Shown here: piece after piece, positions 22,028-36,778 of the stretch
Layout of the letters: each line of letters opens with the position of its first letter
How positions within the stretch are numbered: the stretch's first letter is position 1
Source of the DNA: Escherichia phage OliverMaurmann_Bas86
Length of the DNA stretch: 64,000 bases
Strand: one strand, 5' to 3'
Sequence record: PQ850622.1
The notes under the pieces: generated by a model
What the model saw: only the letters and a program-made list of their open reading frames with translations
The model's database searches: none
What the model was told of the DNA's origin: nothing
Program-made: the position numbers and the translations under genes

Positions 22028-22768
22028 TTAGAATGGGCTATCATCTTCTTCAAAGGTTGATTGCGGCTCTTCGTTAATGGTAGGAATACTTGGAGTAGCA
22101 TCTTTCTGTTCAGTGTCAGAAGCTTTAGTAACTTCACGACCAGCCAGAGGGATATTCTTAGCATCGTTAGCTTGAGTCAAGAGGTTACGTTGGAATGGGA
22201 AGATTGCTTGATAAGCAGCTAAGTTAGCGTCAGTCTCAGCATACGGTTCGAAGAAGATCAACTCACTACGAGGAGCACCTACCGCGTCACGATATTTAGT
22301 CGGGATTGGAGTGATGCTTTTAATGGAGTTTTTCTTCTCACCAGCTTTATTGGTGTAAGAGTTAACCAGAATGTTAACAGGCTGACCTAACAGCATATCT
22401 TTAAACCAACCCAAATCACCTTTCAGTGCTTGAACACTTGGGTCGATCATTTTAATCAGATTTAGAATACCAGAGTTCTTAGCTCGTGGGTTTACATCAA
22501 AAGATTTAAACTGGCAAGCAGGACGAGGGTCCAGAGGTTTGCCTTCATTATCAGTCCCTGTTGCATCTACGCCAATCAGCTCAAAAGCTAAGTCCATACG
22601 GAAAGCTGGGTTCTTAGGAGTAACTGCTTTGGTTTTAGGGTCAATCCAAGGGTCACGATTGTGAACACCCAAACCTACAACACGAACAATACGTGCTTCG
22701 TACTCACCATCAGGGATTACATCGTAGTTGGATTTACGGGATACAGACAGTTCAGGGATCATAGACAT
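22028..22768 (-). CDS. Single-stranded DNA-binding protein (T7 gp2.5-like)
   Basis: The acidic C-terminal tail ..FEEDDSPF, ending in an aromatic residue, is typical of phage SSBs. Located in the replication module. Confidence 0.7.
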   Translation of the reverse strand: MSMIPELSVSRKSNYDVIPDGEYEARIVRVVGLGVHNRDPWIDPKTKAVTPKNPAFRMDLAFELIGVDATGTDNEGKPLDPRPACQFKSFDVNPRAKNSGILNLIKMIDPSVQALKGDLGWFKDMLLGQPVNILVNSYTNKAGEKKNSIKSITPIPTKYRDAVGAPRSELIFFEPYAETDANLAAYQAIFPFQRNLLTQANDAKNIPLAGREVTKASDTEQKDATPSIPTINEEPQSTFEEDDSPF

Positions 22769-22825: not shown

Positions 22826-22836
22826 TATATACATTA
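22826..22836 (-). promoter_or_regulatory. Candidate phage-sigma promoter TAATGTATATA
   Basis: Lies about 60 nt upstream of SSB ATG 22768, in the loop of the TGTATA/TATACA inverted repeat (22819-22848). Confidence 0.55.
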
Positions 22837-22898: not shown

Positions 22899-22909
22899 TA
22901 ATGTATATA
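22899..22909 (+). promoter_or_regulatory. Same motif TAATGTATATA in divergent (plus) orientation
   Basis: Points away from SSB into an ORF-free, hairpin-rich 200 nt and then antisense to gene 23104..23742. Confidence 0.4.
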
Positions 22910-30836: not shown

Positions 30837-31484
30837 TTAACTCTCCAAAGTTTTCTTCAAAGCTGCCCATGAGATTGGATAGAGTTTAGCCATCTCTTCA
30901 TCTAATGACTGAGCAAATAGTCGAACTTCATATTGAGCATGGGATGATAGTCGTTGACGACACAATTCAAACCAGCCATACAAGCTACCAGTCCAGTACC
31001 AAGTAGTTACCATACCTTGAGGTAAAACAAATCTAGCTTGTTCAGGAGCTACGAACTTAATCAATTCGTCATAACTAGCAAGAGATGCCTCGTACGCAGA
31101 GTTAAACAAAGCTAAAGCTTTTGCCTCTTCCTCCCCTTCAAGAAGTATTCCAGAACCAGAATGTAGATCATCTGGACGGGAGAAGATTTCTTTAGGTATG
31201 AAAATATCCACTGCTCCATCTTTATATCTACGACTCATCTCGTTCCAAGAAAAACCAACTTGATGCTTCTGTAACTGTCGTGCAATTGCTATAGGAGCTT
31301 CGCATCTGAAGCTCGCTTGTGGGTGACGAAAAGGACTTACGTGTCGTTCCCGAGCTAGAAAATTTATTAGACGAGTGTCACTTTCTTTTAATTCTTCCCT
31401 TTCTACCCCCATAGTTACACGAGCAGCATTGACTACTGTAAGATCTGAACCGAAGTTATCAATTAATGAAGCTTTGATTGTCAT
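30837..31484 (-). CDS. thyX: ThyX-like flavin-dependent thymidylate synthase homolog with divergent signature
   Basis: ThyX-like ..RHVSPFRHP..QLQKHQVGFSWNEMSRRY. The canonical RHR-x7-S motif reads KHQ here. Confidence 0.8.
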   Translation of the reverse strand: MTIKASLIDNFGSDLTVVNAARVTMGVEREELKESDTRLINFLARERHVSPFRHPQASFRCEAPIAIARQLQKHQVGFSWNEMSRRYKDGAVDIFIPKEIFSRPDDLHSGSGILLEGEEEAKALALFNSAYEASLASYDELIKFVAPEQARFVLPQGMVTTWYWTGSLYGWFELCRQRLSSHAQYEVRLFAQSLDEEMAKLYPISWAALKKTLES

Positions 31485-31950
31485 TTATGTAAGTCTCCTT
31501 GACTTTATTATATTCCCTAGAGGCTTCTTCTATGGTTGAGAAGAGTCCTATGTGCTTAGATTTAAATACCGCCCGGTAAGCAATAGAGCCACTTTTCCTT
31601 CTATGGACAGTCACTCCAATCACTCCGGTTGATAAATTATTACTCTGAGCTACTTTGTTTAGGCCATTTCCTGATCTAGTAGTCCCCCTAAGATTCTCTC
31701 TTTTGTTGTTTATCCTGTTGCGGTCTATGTGATCTACTTCTTCAGGAAGCAATCCAGTGTCCCACCAGTAAGCAAGTCGATGAGCGTAGTATCTAGCACC
31801 TTTATAAACGATTCTCAAATACCCATTGGTATTTACAGAACCAGCTATAGACCCTTTGTGTCCTTTTCCATAAGTTTTAACCCATCGGAAATCTCCAGTC
31901 AAAGGGTCGTAATCAAGAGCTTCTTTTATTGACGGGTCAATATCATTCAT
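31459..31950 (-). CDS. HNH_3 + AP2-domain homing endonuclease
   Basis: YDPLTGDFRW..GYLRIVYKGARYYAHRLAYWW..VDHIDRNRINN, then GVTVHRR..YRAVF (AP2-like). Overlaps the thyX start by 26 nt. Confidence 0.8.
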   Translation of the reverse strand: MNDIDPSIKEALDYDPLTGDFRWVKTYGKGHKGSIAGSVNTNGYLRIVYKGARYYAHRLAYWWDTGLLPEEVDHIDRNRINNKRENLRGTTRSGNGLNKVAQSNNLSTGVIGVTVHRRKSGSIAYRAVFKSKHIGLFSTIEEASREYNKVKETYINDNQSFIN

Positions 31951-31965
31951 CCGTGAATACCCTTA

Positions 31966-32241
31966 TTATTTATTGCCTAGAGCTGTATCCAAAAATGCTT
32001 TCAGGTTTGCTTCAGTCTGCATACCGGAGAGGCTGTAGTGTGCACCACTGTTACGGTCAGGCACAACGAAAGCAGGGATACTTCGTACACCATACTTAAC
32101 AGCTTGTTCACGACCATCACCTTCAAGGATGTTAATCTCTTCCACTTCTACATCAAACTCCTTAACAACCTTCTCAAAGGTAGGAGCCATTGCTTTACAT
32201 GGAGCACATGAATTACTATAAAATTTAATTACTTTACTCAT
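31966..32241 (-). CDS. Thioredoxin
   Basis: FYSNSCAPCKAM contains the CxxC active site. ATG at 32241 behind aagga is preferred over the track start. Confidence 0.8.
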   Translation of the reverse strand: MSKVIKFYSNSCAPCKAMAPTFEKVVKEFDVEVEEINILEGDGREQAVKYGVRSIPAFVVPDRNSGAHYSLSGMQTEANLKAFLDTALGNK

Positions 32242-32242
32242 T

Positions 32243-32419
32243 CTATTCCTTGTTAATAAACAGATTGATATGGCGCTGAGTAGCAGGGACAACAATAAAA
32301 GATTTATACTGCCCTTTTGCTAAATCATGAGCAATCTTCTTTGTCTGACCAAGACCCATTACACAGCCACTAACAATAATGGCATGTGCTTGTAATTCTT
32401 CAGGGAGGTTTAATTTCAC
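32243..32419 (-). CDS. Possible 58-aa ORF (GTG start)
   Basis: aaggaatccaaaga precedes the GTG. Fills the gap between two genes. Confidence 0.35.
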   Translation of the reverse strand: MKLNLPEELQAHAIIVSGCVMGLGQTKKIAHDLAKGQYKSFIVVPATQRHINLFINKE

Positions 32420-32431
32420 TCTTTGGATTCC

Positions 32432-32617
32432 TTACAGCATAACAAGAACGATAATAAGAGGTAGTGTTATAGCAAAATGTACCAGAACAACACTACCTAG
32501 CTTGATAGCTTTAACATCCTCTTCTGCTGGGTTTTCTTTAATTGCTAAATTTCGAGCTTTATAGATAATAGTACCAACTATTAACGACCACACGGCCCAC
32601 ACAACCAATGAAATCAT
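32432..32617 (-). CDS. Small two-TMD membrane protein (paralog 1)
   Basis: MISLVVWAVWSLIVGTIIY..VLVHFAITLPLIIVLV. Confidence 0.5.
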   Translation of the reverse strand: MISLVVWAVWSLIVGTIIYKARNLAIKENPAEEDVKAIKLGSVVLVHFAITLPLIIVLVML

Positions 32618-32626
32618 ATCAAACCC

Positions 32627-32806
32627 TTATGCAGTCAGAAGGTGAAGCAGGAATGGGATAACAACAGCTACGACAACCATGATGGTTGATGCTGTTTGAA
32701 TCTCACCTTTCTTGTCAGGGGTTTCTTCAATAAGCTTACCAGAAGCCCAATAGATACCACCGCCAATAAAGATAGCCCAAATACCCCATACGATTGCTGA
32801 TAACAT
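32627..32806 (-). CDS. Small two-TMD membrane protein (paralog 2, 59 aa, below track cutoff)
   Basis: MLSAIVWGIWAIFIGGGIYWASGKLIEETPDKKGEIQTASTIMVVVAVVIPFLLHLLTA. RBS aagga. Confidence 0.5.
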   Translation of the reverse strand: MLSAIVWGIWAIFIGGGIYWASGKLIEETPDKKGEIQTASTIMVVVAVVIPFLLHLLTA

Positions 32807-32867
32807 ATATCTATATCCTTATAAATGAGTTCGCCCCACCTCGGGTTAGGAGACAGGGCGGAGGTTT

Positions 32868-33443
32868 TTAGTAAGACACATCACCACTTGAGTGGGACAT
32901 GTTGCTCTTGACGAAGTAACAGAACTTGCCAAGACCTTCATTAATTTCTTGAAGCATACTCTGGTCCACTGGATAGGTGCACAAGTCTGAATCAAACTCA
33001 TCCATCTTCTCAATGATACACATAAGAGTCATGCACATGTCGGAAAGCATACCGTCCATGTCGAGATCAGCGTTACCTTCTCGGAACCAAGCATGGCCTA
33101 AATAATTACTAGCAGTAGCATCCACTTTAACACAATGAAAGCGCATACGCTCTGCTATTCGGTCGCCTGCCTCACGAGCATAATCTTCTAGTTCATCGAA
33201 CATACCATGAACACCTTGGAAACCAGCTCCAGAGACGTTCCAGTGGTAGTTCTTTGCTTTGATGTGTAGAAGTTCAAGGTTAGCTTGCACACCACACAAG
33301 ATGTGTTCTAAGCTGTTACCGCTAATCAGTTTATTCATTCCCTCAAGACGAGAGATAGAAGAGTCAGTAGTAGAGAATGGGTTGCTAGAACCCACTCGTG
33401 TTAGTTCTGGTAAGTCGAAGACATTATTATGCATTAGGTGCAT
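32868..33443 (-). CDS. Dps/ferritin-like protein
   Basis: KAKNYHWNVSGAGFQGVHGMFDELEDYAREAGDRIAERM matches the Dps ferroxidase helix pattern HW-x-x-x-G..F..H..F-[DE]-E..D..AER. Confidence 0.75.
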   Translation of the reverse strand: MHLMHNNVFDLPELTRVGSSNPFSTTDSSISRLEGMNKLISGNSLEHILCGVQANLELLHIKAKNYHWNVSGAGFQGVHGMFDELEDYAREAGDRIAERMRFHCVKVDATASNYLGHAWFREGNADLDMDGMLSDMCMTLMCIIEKMDEFDSDLCTYPVDQSMLQEINEGLGKFCYFVKSNMSHSSGDVSY

Positions 33444-33774
33444 CCCCTTCTAAGTTAGTTGAATTAGCTACATTACGAGCAATGTTATCCATGACCTGCT
33501 GGGTAATAACAATGCAATTCTGTGGGTCTACAGACTTAGAACGCCCCATTTCAGGGTCATAAACCTTAACACGCTTGGCTGTTGAGCCAGTAACTTGCAA
33601 CACTTTGAGAAGATAACCTTGGTTTCCAATAGACCATGCAACAACATCACGATTCTTGATATAACGACCAAGCATATCACGATGATAGAACTGCTGCATA
33701 ACTTTAGCTTTGCTAATCTCTTCAGATGGCGGGGCCACTTTACTCAAATCTAACATAACTCTCTCCTGTTTCAT
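33427..33774 (-). CDS. Hypothetical protein
   Basis: 115-aa ORF downstream of promoter motif 33792-33802. Confidence 0.5.
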   Translation of the reverse strand: MKQERVMLDLSKVAPPSEEISKAKVMQQFYHRDMLGRYIKNRDVVAWSIGNQGYLLKVLQVTGSTAKRVKVYDPEMGRSKSVDPQNCIVITQQVMDNIARNVANSTNLEGDAPNA

Positions 33775-33791
33775 ACAATATTCTTATACTG

Positions 33792-33802
33792 TATATACAT
33801 TT
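33792..33802 (-). promoter_or_regulatory. Candidate phage-sigma promoter AAATGTATATA
   Basis: Lies 18-28 nt upstream of ATG 33774. Contains the 10-bp palindrome TGTATATACA. Confidence 0.5.
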
Positions 33803-33826
33803 GAGAGTTATCATATCTACTACCAA

Positions 33827-34033
33827 CTAGTAGTGGACCTTGCTAGTCAAGGACCCAGCACTGTTATTATCATTTTGAAACCAGCGATGAATCTCCACTT
33901 TTTCAGCGAGTCCTAAAGCTTTTGTAGCTTTCTTAGCAAGACGAGCTTCTTGTCGTGTGTCGAATAATTTAAGACAGTCACCACCGAGATCTTTGTTAGC
34001 CCATTTAACACGAACTGCCCATAATTTAACCAT
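33827..34033 (-). CDS. Hypothetical protein, tandem paralog
   Basis: Shares V-R-V-x-W..TRQEAR..KK..I-H..KVHY-stop with 34033..34248. Confidence 0.5.
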   Translation of the reverse strand: MVKLWAVRVKWANKDLGGDCLKLFDTRQEARLAKKATKALGLAEKVEIHRWFQNDNNSAGSLTSKVHY

Positions 34034-34248
34034 TAGTAATGTACCTTTCCGCTGATATAGAAACGACCTGATTTAAAGTCCTGAGCTTTGTGGATAGTGA
34101 TCTTGTCAATAGTACTTTCGCAGCTTAATAAGAACTTCTTATGAGCGCGAGCTTCTTGACGAGTGTTTCTGATACCCATTGACTCTGTACCACTGCTCCA
34201 GTGAACGCGGACTACCCAACGTCTTTTCATTGTTCCAAACTCCATCAA
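34033..34248 (-). CDS. Hypothetical protein, tandem paralog
   Basis: See 33827..34033. Confidence 0.5.
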   Translation of the reverse strand: MMEFGTMKRRWVVRVHWSSGTESMGIRNTRQEARAHKKFLLSCESTIDKITIHKAQDFKSGRFYISGKVHY

Positions 34249-34782
34249 TTATACGCCTTTAGAAGCAACAACCCCATCAGAGTTATTGTAACGACCCTTC
34301 ACTGCATAGGAATCATCACCAGCGTGAGAGTGTTCAAACATAACCATTTGACCAACACGCATCCCAGCACGAACTCGTAAGCTGTGATTGTGGGTAACGT
34401 TATGGAACTCAAAGGTTAGCTTACTGCTGTTAAACCCTGCATCAGCCCACCCAGCATGTAAGTGGTTCAAACCACAACGAGCCATTGAGGAGCGAAGTAC
34501 AAACAGACTTGAGATGTTATCTGGAAGGTTAAACTCTTCCATTGAGTGCGCTAAGAAGAATTGTCCCGGAGTGATGACAATACCATCTTCAGGGATTTTC
34601 ACCTCTTTCCACTTGAGGTTTTCTTTAGCATCAATGTCAACAATGCCGTCAGCCTGTTCTTCAACAAGGATAGTATCACCAATACGGATATCCACACTAG
34701 CAGCGTTAACATATTTATGCTCCGCATCTAAAAAGCCATTATCAATAACACTGTGTAATTCTTGAGAACCTAAAAGACTCAT
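34249..34782 (-). CDS. dcd: dCTP deaminase family protein
   Basis: SVDIRIGD, LRSSMARCGL and GWADAGFNSSKLTFEFHN fit the Dcd/dUTPase trimeric fold motifs. Confidence 0.85.
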   Translation of the reverse strand: MSLLGSQELHSVIDNGFLDAEHKYVNAASVDIRIGDTILVEEQADGIVDIDAKENLKWKEVKIPEDGIVITPGQFFLAHSMEEFNLPDNISSLFVLRSSMARCGLNHLHAGWADAGFNSSKLTFEFHNVTHNHSLRVRAGMRVGQMVMFEHSHAGDDSYAVKGRYNNSDGVVASKGV

Positions 34783-36227
34783 GAGTTTCTGTTTCCTTGT
34801 ACAGATGATGCCAAATTGTTAATCATGTTACGAGCTGTTTCACGAGTCAGCGTAACACCTGCTAAGTTACTATCAAGTTCACCAACTAATTCACGAGCTG
34901 TTGCTCGGAGTTCTGCACCAAGTGTAGTGTTAGAATGAGCCAGACCATTACGACGACCGACAGGTCGAGGAGTATTGTTAGCATCATTAGCTAAAGATGC
35001 AAAACCAATACGAGCAGCTTCACGAGCGGCTATAGCTGCTACCCGATCTTCCGTAGGGGTTGGCAAATCACCAACTTCTACACGTTCTATATCACTAGAA
35101 CGTAGACCCTGAACAACAGAGCTAACTGTTTCCCATGAACGACGGGAGCGCTGCAAATCACCCATAGATGGAGAAGAAGCAGGTCGAACAGTTACTCCAC
35201 CTGTATCATGAGTGACGTGCCATGTACGAGTACCCATTCCAGAAGAACGGGCACTACCAAAACTACCAGTGAAAGTATCACGAGGTGCCTCTGTAGCAGG
35301 TGCTGCGAATCTTGTCTGTTGCCAAGAGTCACGTCTGTCAGTTCCCGGAGTCCAAGGCTGCGTAATTGCTTCAGCACCTATAGTGGTTAATCCGCTAGAC
35401 CATTCTGTCTGTAGATTAACTTCCTCGTCCAGATAACTACGACCCCTTTCCTGAGGAATGTTTAATATAGTTTCCATCATCTTCAGGGTATAATGATGAC
35501 GCTGATTCTGATATAAATTTACACCAGCCATAGGTCCAACTAAATCACTAATCAGGTGAACTTCTGGCTCACCGAAAGCTCCCATTGCAAGGTGCATGTA
35601 TTCAGTAGAACTGCTATAAACTGCAACAGTTGCTTCAGGCCACTTCTTGTGAACATACTTCATTTCACGACTAGATACCACAGGAATGTCACGAGTGTAT
35701 GACATTGCAAACAAACCTTCGTTTGACACATACAGATTACCAAGAGTCATAAACCCTTGACAGATCATAGGAAAGCGACGGCTTAAAGTATCCATATCCA
35801 AAGGTAGATTAATCATCATCTGGATTTTAACTTGATCAATCTCAATTTCCAGAATCTCTTGGAAAGTGAAAAGCGCTTCAGCATAGGTTGTCCCGTTAAC
35901 AGGCTGAATTAGTCGAGATGTAACCTGAAGCCCCTTACTTTCTGTCCAAGATAAGAAGTTGTCAAGGAATAGTGCAGCATTACCTACGTTAGCAGGGCTG
36001 TTTTCTTGACGAGTGTTCCAACGAAGCCCTCCTTGAACTAGGAAGATATCAACATCATTCGGAGTTCTATTTTGAAAGAACGTATCACGGATAGCACCAC
36101 CTGCAATAACAGGATAGATGCCATCAGGGACTACGTTATCTCTGATCAAATTACGAATCAGGTCAAGCCCTACACTGAGGGCTTCTCCTTCTTGAAGGTT
36201 CAATTCAGATAGTGGAATCTTAATCAT
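34779..36227 (-). CDS. Class II (CCA/polyA-type) nucleotidyltransferase-like N-domain plus long S/T/R/G-rich C-terminal region
   Basis: VIAGGAIRDTFFQNRTPNDVDIFL matches GG-x-x-RD..D-x-D. Residues ~270-480 are low-complexity. Confidence 0.5.
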   Translation of the reverse strand: MIKIPLSELNLQEGEALSVGLDLIRNLIRDNVVPDGIYPVIAGGAIRDTFFQNRTPNDVDIFLVQGGLRWNTRQENSPANVGNAALFLDNFLSWTESKGLQVTSRLIQPVNGTTYAEALFTFQEILEIEIDQVKIQMMINLPLDMDTLSRRFPMICQGFMTLGNLYVSNEGLFAMSYTRDIPVVSSREMKYVHKKWPEATVAVYSSSTEYMHLAMGAFGEPEVHLISDLVGPMAGVNLYQNQRHHYTLKMMETILNIPQERGRSYLDEEVNLQTEWSSGLTTIGAEAITQPWTPGTDRRDSWQQTRFAAPATEAPRDTFTGSFGSARSSGMGTRTWHVTHDTGGVTVRPASSPSMGDLQRSRRSWETVSSVVQGLRSSDIERVEVGDLPTPTEDRVAAIAAREAARIGFASLANDANNTPRPVGRRNGLAHSNTTLGAELRATARELVGELDSNLAGVTLTRETARNMINNLASSVQGNRNS

Positions 36228-36229
36228 TT

Positions 36230-36778
36230 CTACATTTTCCAGTTGAGAGATGGGGGATTCTTATAATCAAATCCAGCCATTTGGCAAAGACACATGTAAA
36301 CCTTAACTGTCAAGTTAACGTCTTGTTCACAATACGTGAACATGTCTTCAGTGAAAGCATCCCATGCTTCTTCCTGTTCACCATAGTCACCCTTCAGCTC
36401 TCCCAGAAATTCGCCCCATTGCTTGAGGCCATGACCGCGAGGTCCGTGTCTAGGGTCGCCTTTGGGATATTCTGGACTGTCACCAATACGGTCAGGCTTG
36501 AGGTATCGACTCAGGCACAGGGTATCAAAGACATTAAAACGAAAAGGTATCACATGAGAGTAGAATTTAAACAAAGCAGGAAGGTCAAAATCAATAATAT
36601 TGTGACCTATTACTACATCAGCTTCTTTCAGTTTGTGTAGTGCTTCTTCAATTTGGTGAGGGCGATACCCCCACCGTTCTCCAGACAGTACATCAAATAT
36701 CCATATACACCAGACATTCTGAATACCATCATAGAGGTTATCACCTTCAATATCAAACGCATACAGTTTCTTTACCAC
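36230..36778 (-). CDS. 3'-5' exonuclease (DnaQ-like), separate exonuclease part of the DNA polymerase
   Basis: Exo I FDIEGD, Exo [11 protein letters not shown], Exo III YCEQDV. Confidence 0.8.

Follow-up and report, generated by a model that had tools for sequence, protein, structure and literature searches.

What is the role of a Dps-like protein encoded by a coliphage? The question is raised by an open reading frame (ORF) of 191 aa on the minus strand at positions 32868..33443 of the window, by which we mean the whole stretch of 64,000 nucleotides analysed here from Escherichia phage OliverMaurmann_Bas86 (sequence record PQ850622.1), a phiEco32-like prolate podophage of the subfamily Gordonclarkvirinae. 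The identification of the gene is already known and is, as such, nothing new. The RefSeq record of phiEco32 carries for gp67 the note "DNA binding protein; member of the Dps family", the SU10 paper, in print since 2014, reports that CDS67 contains a Dps domain (PMC4281155), and the Privateer paper notes a Dps family protein that also occurs in Kuravirus phages (PMC7881722).

What deserves attention is the function of this gene, which is conserved, well expressed and second in a middle operon; the phages concerned are frequently met in nature and of interest for therapy. The searchable literature yielded neither a biochemical nor a genetic study of a phage Dps. The reading that we prefer, with a probability of roughly 0.65, is that of a Dps mini-ferritin that detoxifies iron and peroxide during phage DNA replication. 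The present analysis adds a correction of the start codon, the operon and its promoter, a gp68-like partner gene, a hairpin, the anatomy and clade limits of an N-terminal extension and an argument about the label that the gene carries in databases.

Family membership and ferroxidase centre

Residue numbers throughout are those of the 191-aa ORF, counted from its first ATG. The coding sequence that we propose is slightly shorter (see below):

32868..33434, minus strand: coding sequence of a Dps-family (mini-ferritin) protein, 188 aa plus stop codon, based on the ORF, the start codon, Pfam, PHROG, the PDB profile and AlphaFold2 (AF2)/Foldseek

The initial annotation had described the ORF as encoding a phage Dps/ferritin-like protein. 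The ORF is present on the minus strand with its 191 aa, and the assignment is borne out by Pfam, PHROG, the PDB profile, the AF2 fold and Foldseek, which all agree. Within the ferritin superfamily, the protein is almost certainly a member of the Dps branch, the matches being far above chance. Pfam PF00210 (Ferritin) was matched with an E value of 7.3e-8 and 32.9 bits, against a gathering cut-off of 24.5 bits; this single-sequence match covers only residues 59-102, the C-terminal half being divergent. The match to phrog_3636 has an E value of 9.8e-53. With the single sequence as query, about 55 solved Dps sequences were matched (best E 7.4e-10), and the closest solved relative, by single sequence as well as by fold, is M. 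smegmatis Dps2.

A family profile built from 23 phage homologs with identities down to 26% (alignment A1) gave full-length matches to about 60 solved Dps sequences. The best of these was Dlp-2 (E 2.6e-27), in an alignment that spans 137/179 profile positions and 139/146 Dlp-2 residues, followed in the ranking by S. aureus Dps, MrgA, Dlp-1, Listeria Dps and M. smegmatis Dps2. E. coli Dps was matched by the family profile with an E value of about 7e-13 and only weakly by the single sequence (E 0.04-0.085), which argues against a recent capture of the gene from the host. Furthermore, the protein falls far under the cut-offs of the NCBIfam equivalog models, both for Dps (NF006975, 34.7 vs 114 bits) and for DpsA (NF041388, 31.1 vs 170 bits; NF052461, 17.4 vs 300 bits), and we therefore regard it as a member of a divergent phage branch rather than as an equivalog of a named cellular Dps.

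The AF2 model, a monomer built on alignment A1, has a mean pLDDT of 84.9, with values above 90 over the core (residues 45-180). Its predicted helices are A (45-69), B (75-102), a short BC helix (111-116), C (129-149) and D (158-180), and this succession in the model is the signature topology of Dps. Searched against the PDB with Foldseek, the model had Dps proteins as all of its best 50 matches (50/50), with target-normalised TM scores of 0.74-0.88 and rmsd values mostly of 1.2-2.6 A, three 4a25 chains reaching up to about 10 A. The ferritin-like fold, chosen beforehand as the refuting test of the identification, is present in the profile match, in the AF2 model and in the Foldseek comparison with the PDB. 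The ligands of the metal site lie in the following segment:

33144..33245, minus strand: ferroxidase-centre segment, residues 67-100, from the end of helix A to helix B, with H67, W68, H79, D83, D94 and E98

The initial annotation had recognised in this segment (HWNVSGAGFQGVHGMFDELEDYAREAGDRIAERM, residues 67-100 of the minus-strand ORF) the ferroxidase pattern H, H, D/E, D. The metal ligands are indeed conserved among homologs and aligned with the columns of solved Dps proteins: H67, W68, H79, D94 and E98 are invariant among the 23 phage homologs, D83 is kept in 22 of the 23, and in the HMMER alignments with Dlp-2, S. aureus Dps and MrgA the ligands coincide with the H, H, D/E, D, E columns of these proteins. 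We take these ligands to correspond to H51, H63, D67, D78 and E82 of E. coli Dps, and W68 to W52. Judged from the aligned residues, the protein has the full Dps ferroxidase ligand set.

The solved cellular Dps proteins used for comparison (M. smegmatis Dps2, 2z90; B. anthracis Dlp-2, 1jig; B. subtilis MrgA, 2chp; S. aureus Dps, 2d5k; Listeria Dps, 1qgh; E. coli Dps, 1dps) are 18-26% identical to the phage protein. They share with it the four-helix bundle and BC helix, the ligand columns and the neighbouring Trp, and align over their full length with the profile of the phage family. Unlike them, the phage protein is phage-encoded and expressed from a phage middle promoter, and it is Cys-rich in helices C and D, with 6 Cys in total.

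Start codon and terminal extensions

Two features at the 5' end of the gene have to be distinguished:

33435..33443, minus strand: in-frame codons M-H-L ahead of the second ATG, assessed from homolog starts and RBS spacing
33312..33434, minus strand: clade-specific N-terminal extension, residues 4-44, delimited by conservation in 14 long-form homologs

Translation most likely begins at position 33434 with the second ATG, which encodes M4, and the codons M-H-L are probably untranslated. The alignment column of M4 is invariant, and MH(N/K)N opens every homolog. A purine-rich run, GAAGGGGA, sits 8 nt 5' of the second ATG, whereas the first ATG abuts this run directly, with no spacer. The SU7 and phiEco32 records begin the gene at the same codon as M4. 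Considering the conserved column, the RBS spacing and these two annotations, we place the coding sequence at 32868..33434, with 188 aa.

The extension that follows opens with a conserved MHNNxFDLP motif. Behind it come a linker that is variable and rich in indels (residues 14-28, with a mean per-column conservation of 0.40 in the 14 long-form homologs) and, as the third part, a conserved S-x-x-R-L-D/E-x-M segment, predicted as a helix (residues 29-41), with R32 in 100% and M36 in 93% of the same homologs. The helix is of low confidence in the AF2 model, in blocks with a mean pLDDT of 58-63. An extension of about 45 aa had been announced in the initial annotation; its presence holds, but its length comes down to about 41 residues ahead of helix A, which begins at residue 45. 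It is about 40 aa longer than in a minimal Dps such as Dlp-2, only about 16 aa longer than in E. coli Dps (query residue 60 being aligned to chain residue 44) and is exceeded by the N-terminal tail of D. radiodurans Dps1 (query 58 aligned to chain residue 74). From the last two comparisons, the length of the extension lies within the range of the Dps family.

The extension is confined to Gordonclarkvirinae and a few metagenomic relatives (171-196 aa), and is missing from homologs of 144-156 aa, including those of Salmonella, Proteus and Aeromonas phages (Grimontviridae). In a phmmer search over 1.84 billion cluster representatives, few matches reached into the region before helix A. The same clade carries an 11-aa C-terminal tail, NMSHSSGDVSY, with a conserved final Tyr. 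The N-terminal motif was also considered as a targeting signal shared between phage proteins, and this was rejected, as no F[DN]LP-like motif occurs near the N-termini of other ORFs in the window.

Middle operon and phage relatives

The gene is embedded in a compact arrangement with three further features:

33427..33756, minus strand: gp68-like partner gene, 109 aa from the start MLDLSK, phrog_10984, predicted SH3-like beta-barrel
33792..33802, minus strand: predicted middle promoter element AAATGTATATA, intergenic, about 35 nt upstream of the gp68 start
32832..32860, minus strand: GC-rich hairpin with an 11-bp stem and a 7-nt loop, beginning 8 nt past the Dps stop

The stop of the gp68-like gene and the start of the Dps gene overlap by 8 nt (ATGCATAA), which suggests translational coupling. 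Proteus phage Privateer and Aeromonas phage BUCT695 each have a gp68 homolog (E about 1e-15) directly upstream of the Dps gene and overlapping its start; the gp68 homolog of Salmonella phage SE131 is located elsewhere within the same module.

The element AAATGTATATA matches 10 of the 11 positions of tAATGTATAtA, the phiEco32 sigma-gp36 consensus, and its conservation extends from the window to SU7 and phiEco32. The SU10 paper, citing Pavlova et al. 2012 on this point, describes the consensus as the element that the phage sigma factor recognises in phiEco32, at its three middle promoters as well as at its three late ones (PMC4281155). It also puts a middle promoter ahead of CDS68 and counts CDS25-68 as middle genes. 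Against an expectation of 2.7, the window contains seven AATGTATA sites. Four of them are plus-strand sites, three within the structural region and another at 22900, and the remaining three are minus-strand sites of the middle region. From the promoter element and its placement we therefore consider the gp68-like gene and the Dps gene to be the first two genes of a middle operon. A TAATGTA at 33469-33475 (minus strand) was examined as a possible promoter directly before the Dps gene and rejected; this 7-mer is just 2-fold enriched (20 vs 10.5 expected), phiEco32 has CGTAACGTT at that place, and the motif consists of Arg-Asn-Val codons of gp68.

A sigma-70 and terminator scan of positions 31000-36500 gave fewer promoter-like sites than shuffled sequences, and it left the hairpin behind the Dps gene uncalled because it has no T-run. 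The hairpin has a minimum free energy of -21.3 kcal/mol (z -2.19), and its stem is invariant, the loop differing in SU7. Lacking a T-run, it may be an attenuator, a partial terminator or a stabiliser of the mRNA rather than a full terminator. As for expression, mass spectrometry (MS) identified SU10 CDS67 by 6 peptides (coverage 35.8%), more than for any other middle-gene product, and gp68 and thioredoxin were found as well (PMC4281155).

Megablast searches with positions 32000-34500 and 20000-44999 returned 98 Escherichia and Shigella phage records. Over the 25-kb stretch, the closest genomes are PAS59 (95.8% identity, 97% coverage), Bas87 (97.0% over 93%) and SU7 (93.2% over 96%). At the protein level, identity is 100% to SU7 gp067 and 84% to phiEco32 gp67. 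Indeed, phiEco32 gp67, SU10 CDS67 and SU7 gp067 (phrog_3636) are orthologs of the protein and share with it the place behind gp68 in the middle operon, the N-terminal extension and the C-terminal tail; there is no substantive difference between them, the present gene coming from a separate isolate.

By tblastn, 133 of 50,697 phage records matched, of which 92 were from Escherichia and 3 from Shigella phages (Gordonclarkvirinae); further matches came from Aeromonas, Proteus, Salmonella and Cronobacter phages (Grimontviridae, also prolate C3 podophages) and from two Synechococcus phages. The statement that Dps homologs are uncommon in lytic phages thus holds overall but fails within the lineage of this phage, where the gene occurs in five of the five C3 phages compared: of the middle genes, only a few, CDS67, CDS68 and thioredoxin (CDS65) among them, were common to the five C3 phages that had been sequenced at the time of the SU10 paper (PMC4281155). 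The phmmer search gave 554 matches with E <= 1e-3 and only 12 with E <= 1e-10, so that the phage branch stands well apart from the bulk of cellular Dps.

The short forms of Grimontviridae (Proteus phage Privateer QIN94861, Salmonella phage SE131 gp090 and Aeromonas phage BUCT695 gp062) are 33-43% identical to the protein and have the same ligands, a nucleotide-metabolism context and a gp68-like partner; with 146-154 aa, they are devoid of the N-terminal extension of about 40 aa and of the 11-aa C-terminal tail ending in Tyr. Other phage-borne Dps-like genes, in Lactobacillus myophages, Bacillus phage G (gp346), the gut 'Gratiaviridae' and Synechococcus phage S-SRM01, are independent cases from different family lineages and in different contexts. 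The literature reads them as auxiliary genes against oxidative stress; for the gut-phage genes, the role was only inferred by Benler et al. (PMC8008677).

In every lineage examined, the gene lies within a replication and nucleotide-metabolism module. In the window, SU7 and phiEco32, this module comprises primase/helicase, DNA polymerase, nucleotidyltransferase, dCTP deaminase, thioredoxin, ThyX, DNA ligase and PhoH, and in Grimontviridae it includes dCTP deaminase, thioredoxin, ThyX, anaerobic ribonucleotide reductase and a GrcA-like protein. Such a consistent adjacency could suggest that the protein is not a protectant of DNA but an iron buffer or donor which supplies or shields the iron- and oxygen-sensitive enzymes of the phage nucleotide-synthesis module. 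The BUCT695 gene is directly upstream of the large subunit of anaerobic ribonucleotide reductase and of a GrcA-like glycyl-radical protein, the Privateer gene is directly upstream of a small NrdD-related ORF, and thioredoxin and ThyX are co-conserved with the Dps gene. However, the SU7 and phiEco32 stretches examined have no NrdD/NrdG and yet retain the Dps gene, no ribonucleotide reductase is found for close relatives over 20000-44999 of the window, at least among the product names listed, and adjacency within a compact phage operon is weak evidence. We therefore hold a buffer or donor role to be unlikely; it shares its ferroxidase chemistry with the detoxifying mini-ferritin and differs mainly in the beneficiary.

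Possible roles: iron chemistry, virion association and DNA binding

For the detoxifying mini-ferritin, we infer dodecamer formation, iron oxidation and physiological benefit from membership in the family. Twelve subunits would assemble into a hollow cage, in which each two-fold interface would hold two Fe(II), bound by H67, H79 and D83 of one subunit and by D94 and E98 of its partner. The Fe(II) would be oxidised, with H2O2 as the preferred oxidant, and the resulting Fe(III) kept as a mineral inside the cage, so that both Fenton reagents would be removed while phage DNA replicates. At that time host transcription would be in the course of being taken over, and the OxyR/Dps response of the host would not be inducible. 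As relayed in the SU10 paper, phiEco32 has a small protein that inhibits the sigma-70 holoenzyme (PMC4281155). If the phage redirects the host RNA polymerase in this way, the peroxide response of the host would be out of reach, and the phage would for this reason supply a mini-ferritin of its own.

Two sets of observations fit this model less well. The N-terminal extension and the conserved C-terminal Tyr are not accounted for by iron and peroxide chemistry, and a purely cytoplasmic role does not lead one to expect that the Privateer homolog is among about ten proteins detected by MS in CsCl-purified virions (PMC7881722). The latter would be explained if the protein were virion-associated, in or on the prolate capsid, like the ferritin-like cargo of HK97-fold encapsulin shells; its place of action would then be the packaged genome, or else the next host, to which it would be delivered. 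In line with this, a BFVD fold search returned Dps-fold matches in 'Prohead protease' proteins of uncultured phages (333-763 aa), some long phage-type proteins contain a Dps domain internally (e.g. P0147, P0135, P0164 and P0097), and the N-terminal extension resembles a short conserved motif on a variable linker.

Several of these points lose weight on closer inspection. The Privateer protein is a short form without the N-terminal extension, so the extension is no general packaging signal, and its motif is found in no other ORF of the window. A cage of about 250 kDa could merely co-purify with virions. A fusion of Dps and prohead protease as a general phage theme, suggested by the BFVD names, was not borne out in the four long Dps-domain proteins tested: Pfam and PHROGs gave the Dps domain and one further family without assigned function only, and no protease domain. 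The SU10 sample analysed by MS was merely PEG-precipitated and also contained DNA polymerase, sigma factor, thioredoxin and PhoH; it therefore speaks for expression and not for packaging. The study of SU10 by cryo-EM and virion composition names gp20-24 as head-internal ejection proteins and leaves Dps/gp67 unmentioned, and the gene belongs to the middle operon and not to the structural genes. Location in the virion is thus improbable in our view. We give an equally small chance to the more specific proposal, drawn from the Privateer CsCl proteome, the 'Prohead protease' Dps-fold matches and the multi-domain Dps proteins, that the Dps cage is a low-copy component of the virion or is coupled to capsid assembly, with the N-terminal motif and linker and the C-terminal Tyr as docking elements. 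If true, it would be the phage counterpart of the ferritin-like cargo in HK97-fold encapsulins.

The detoxifying mini-ferritin has also to be weighed against the labels under which the gene is deposited. Both the deposited records and phrog_3636 read "DNA binding protein", and the nearest solved relative, M. smegmatis Dps2, has itself been studied for DNA compaction in a preprint. Accordingly, the protein might bind and compact DNA, coating replicating or packaged phage DNA, with iron chemistry being secondary. The charge of the protein argues against this. The whole protein has a net charge of -14, its N-terminal 44 residues contain 3 K/R vs 4 D/E (net -1), the C-terminal tail has no K/R at all, and the homologs are all net acidic (23/23, from -3 to -15). 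The lysine/arginine-rich tail of DNA-binding Dps of the E. coli type was sought at the N- and C-terminus and is absent from both.

In E. coli Dps, DNA binding relies on an N-terminal lysine-rich tail, and the tail-less Dps proteins (Listeria Dps, A. tumefaciens Dps and B. anthracis Dlp-1/2) are not known to bind DNA. The phage protein differs from E. coli Dps in having an acidic surface charge and no such basic tail. Among the three roles proposed in the initial annotation (protection of replicating DNA from oxidative damage, iron sequestration and DNA compaction), the last is therefore the least likely, and we give little credence to a DNA-coating protein. Since the protein is acidic and has no K/R-rich tail, the protection offered by the mini-ferritin would probably be chemical, through removal of iron and peroxide, rather than through coating or compaction of DNA.

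It follows from the residue composition that the label "DNA-binding protein" is doubtful; it appears to be borrowed from the name of the family and not from an experiment. Many GenBank records label the gene "integrase". In the Pfam and PHROGs searches, no integrase or recombinase domain was found, Ferritin being the sole Pfam family and phrog_3636 the sole PHROG to pass, and we consequently regard "integrase" as a propagated annotation error. An accurate label would be "Dps-family ferritin-like protein", and such annotation hygiene is the practical outcome of the analysis.

Possible partners of the phage Dps

The Dps gene, which encodes a mini-ferritin (phrog_3636), and the gp68-like gene are the first two genes of the middle operon. 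The relevant features, with residues numbered on the 191-aa ORF, are:

33427-33756, minus strand: gp68-like gene (phrog_10984, a family of unknown function)
32871-33443, minus strand: Dps cysteines C50, C104, C137, C142, C155 and C175

The gp68-like gene is kept in all four lineages of C3 phages (prolate podophages) examined, and in three of these its stop overlaps the Dps start. Its product is predicted, with moderate confidence, to fold as an SH3-like (KOW/Tudor-type) beta-barrel between helices, and the two proteins may be functional partners. Phage Dps of the long form, the clade with an N-terminal extension, are unusually cysteine-rich (3-10 per protein), and helices C and D hold several conserved ones. 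Three to four genes downstream of Dps lies a thioredoxin gene that is conserved together with it, and a redox link between the cysteine-rich Dps and thioredoxin is possible.

Flanking genes and putative regulatory elements

33827-34033 and 34033-34248, both minus strand: tandem paralogs of 68 and ~64-71 aa (phrog_4939, unknown-function family)
32832-32860, minus strand: conserved GC-rich hairpin, 8 nt past the Dps stop
32627-32806 and 32432-32617, both minus strand: a tandem pair of paralogs, 59 and 61 aa long (phrog_9296)
31459-31950, minus strand: HNH homing endonuclease (PF13392; phrog_99, E 3.6e-44)
22828-22835, minus strand: perfect copy (11/11) of the phage-sigma promoter consensus TAATGTATATA
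22900-22907, plus strand: perfect copy (11/11) of the same consensus

The phrog_4939 pair (33% identity between copies) lies just upstream of the middle promoter; both proteins are basic and end with KVHY at the C-terminus. On the other side, the hairpin occupies the longest intergenic gap of an otherwise tightly packed region and has no T-run; its stem is identical in the window and in the related phages SU7 and phiEco32, with a deviating loop in SU7. The phrog_9296 paralogs, directly 3' of Dps, share 30% identity and each contain two hydrophobic segments, whereas phiEco32 has a single copy at this position. The HNH gene sits with thioredoxin on one side and ThyX on the other. SU7 also has the endonuclease, whereas in phiEco32 it is absent here and ThyX directly follows thioredoxin; the gene probably inserted as a mobile element.

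The two perfect consensus copies, on opposite strands and 72 nt apart, are intergenic; the gene downstream of this region has its end at 22768. No evident gene on the plus strand follows the plus-strand copy, which could therefore drive an antisense or non-coding transcript.

Dps domains in longer proteins and annotation of orthologs

Phage-type (phrog_3636) Dps domains also occur within much longer proteins, found by phmmer among cluster representatives: P0147 (777 aa, with two Dps stretches), P0135 (334 aa), P0164 (305 aa) and P0097 (276 aa). Partner domains had no Pfam match in any of these four proteins, and their sole PHROG match was phrog_16075, an unknown-function family, in P0135. BFVD proteins named 'Prohead protease' (A0A6J7XDU5, A0A6J7WPK9 and A0A6J7WIS1) likewise give Dps-fold matches.

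Many deposited GenBank genomes (e.g. IME267, PAS59, UKE3, ES17 and MLP3) name the Dps ortholog 'integrase'. Because no integrase domain is detectable, the label is a propagated annotation error, and it could make phages considered for therapy look temperate when this is not warranted.
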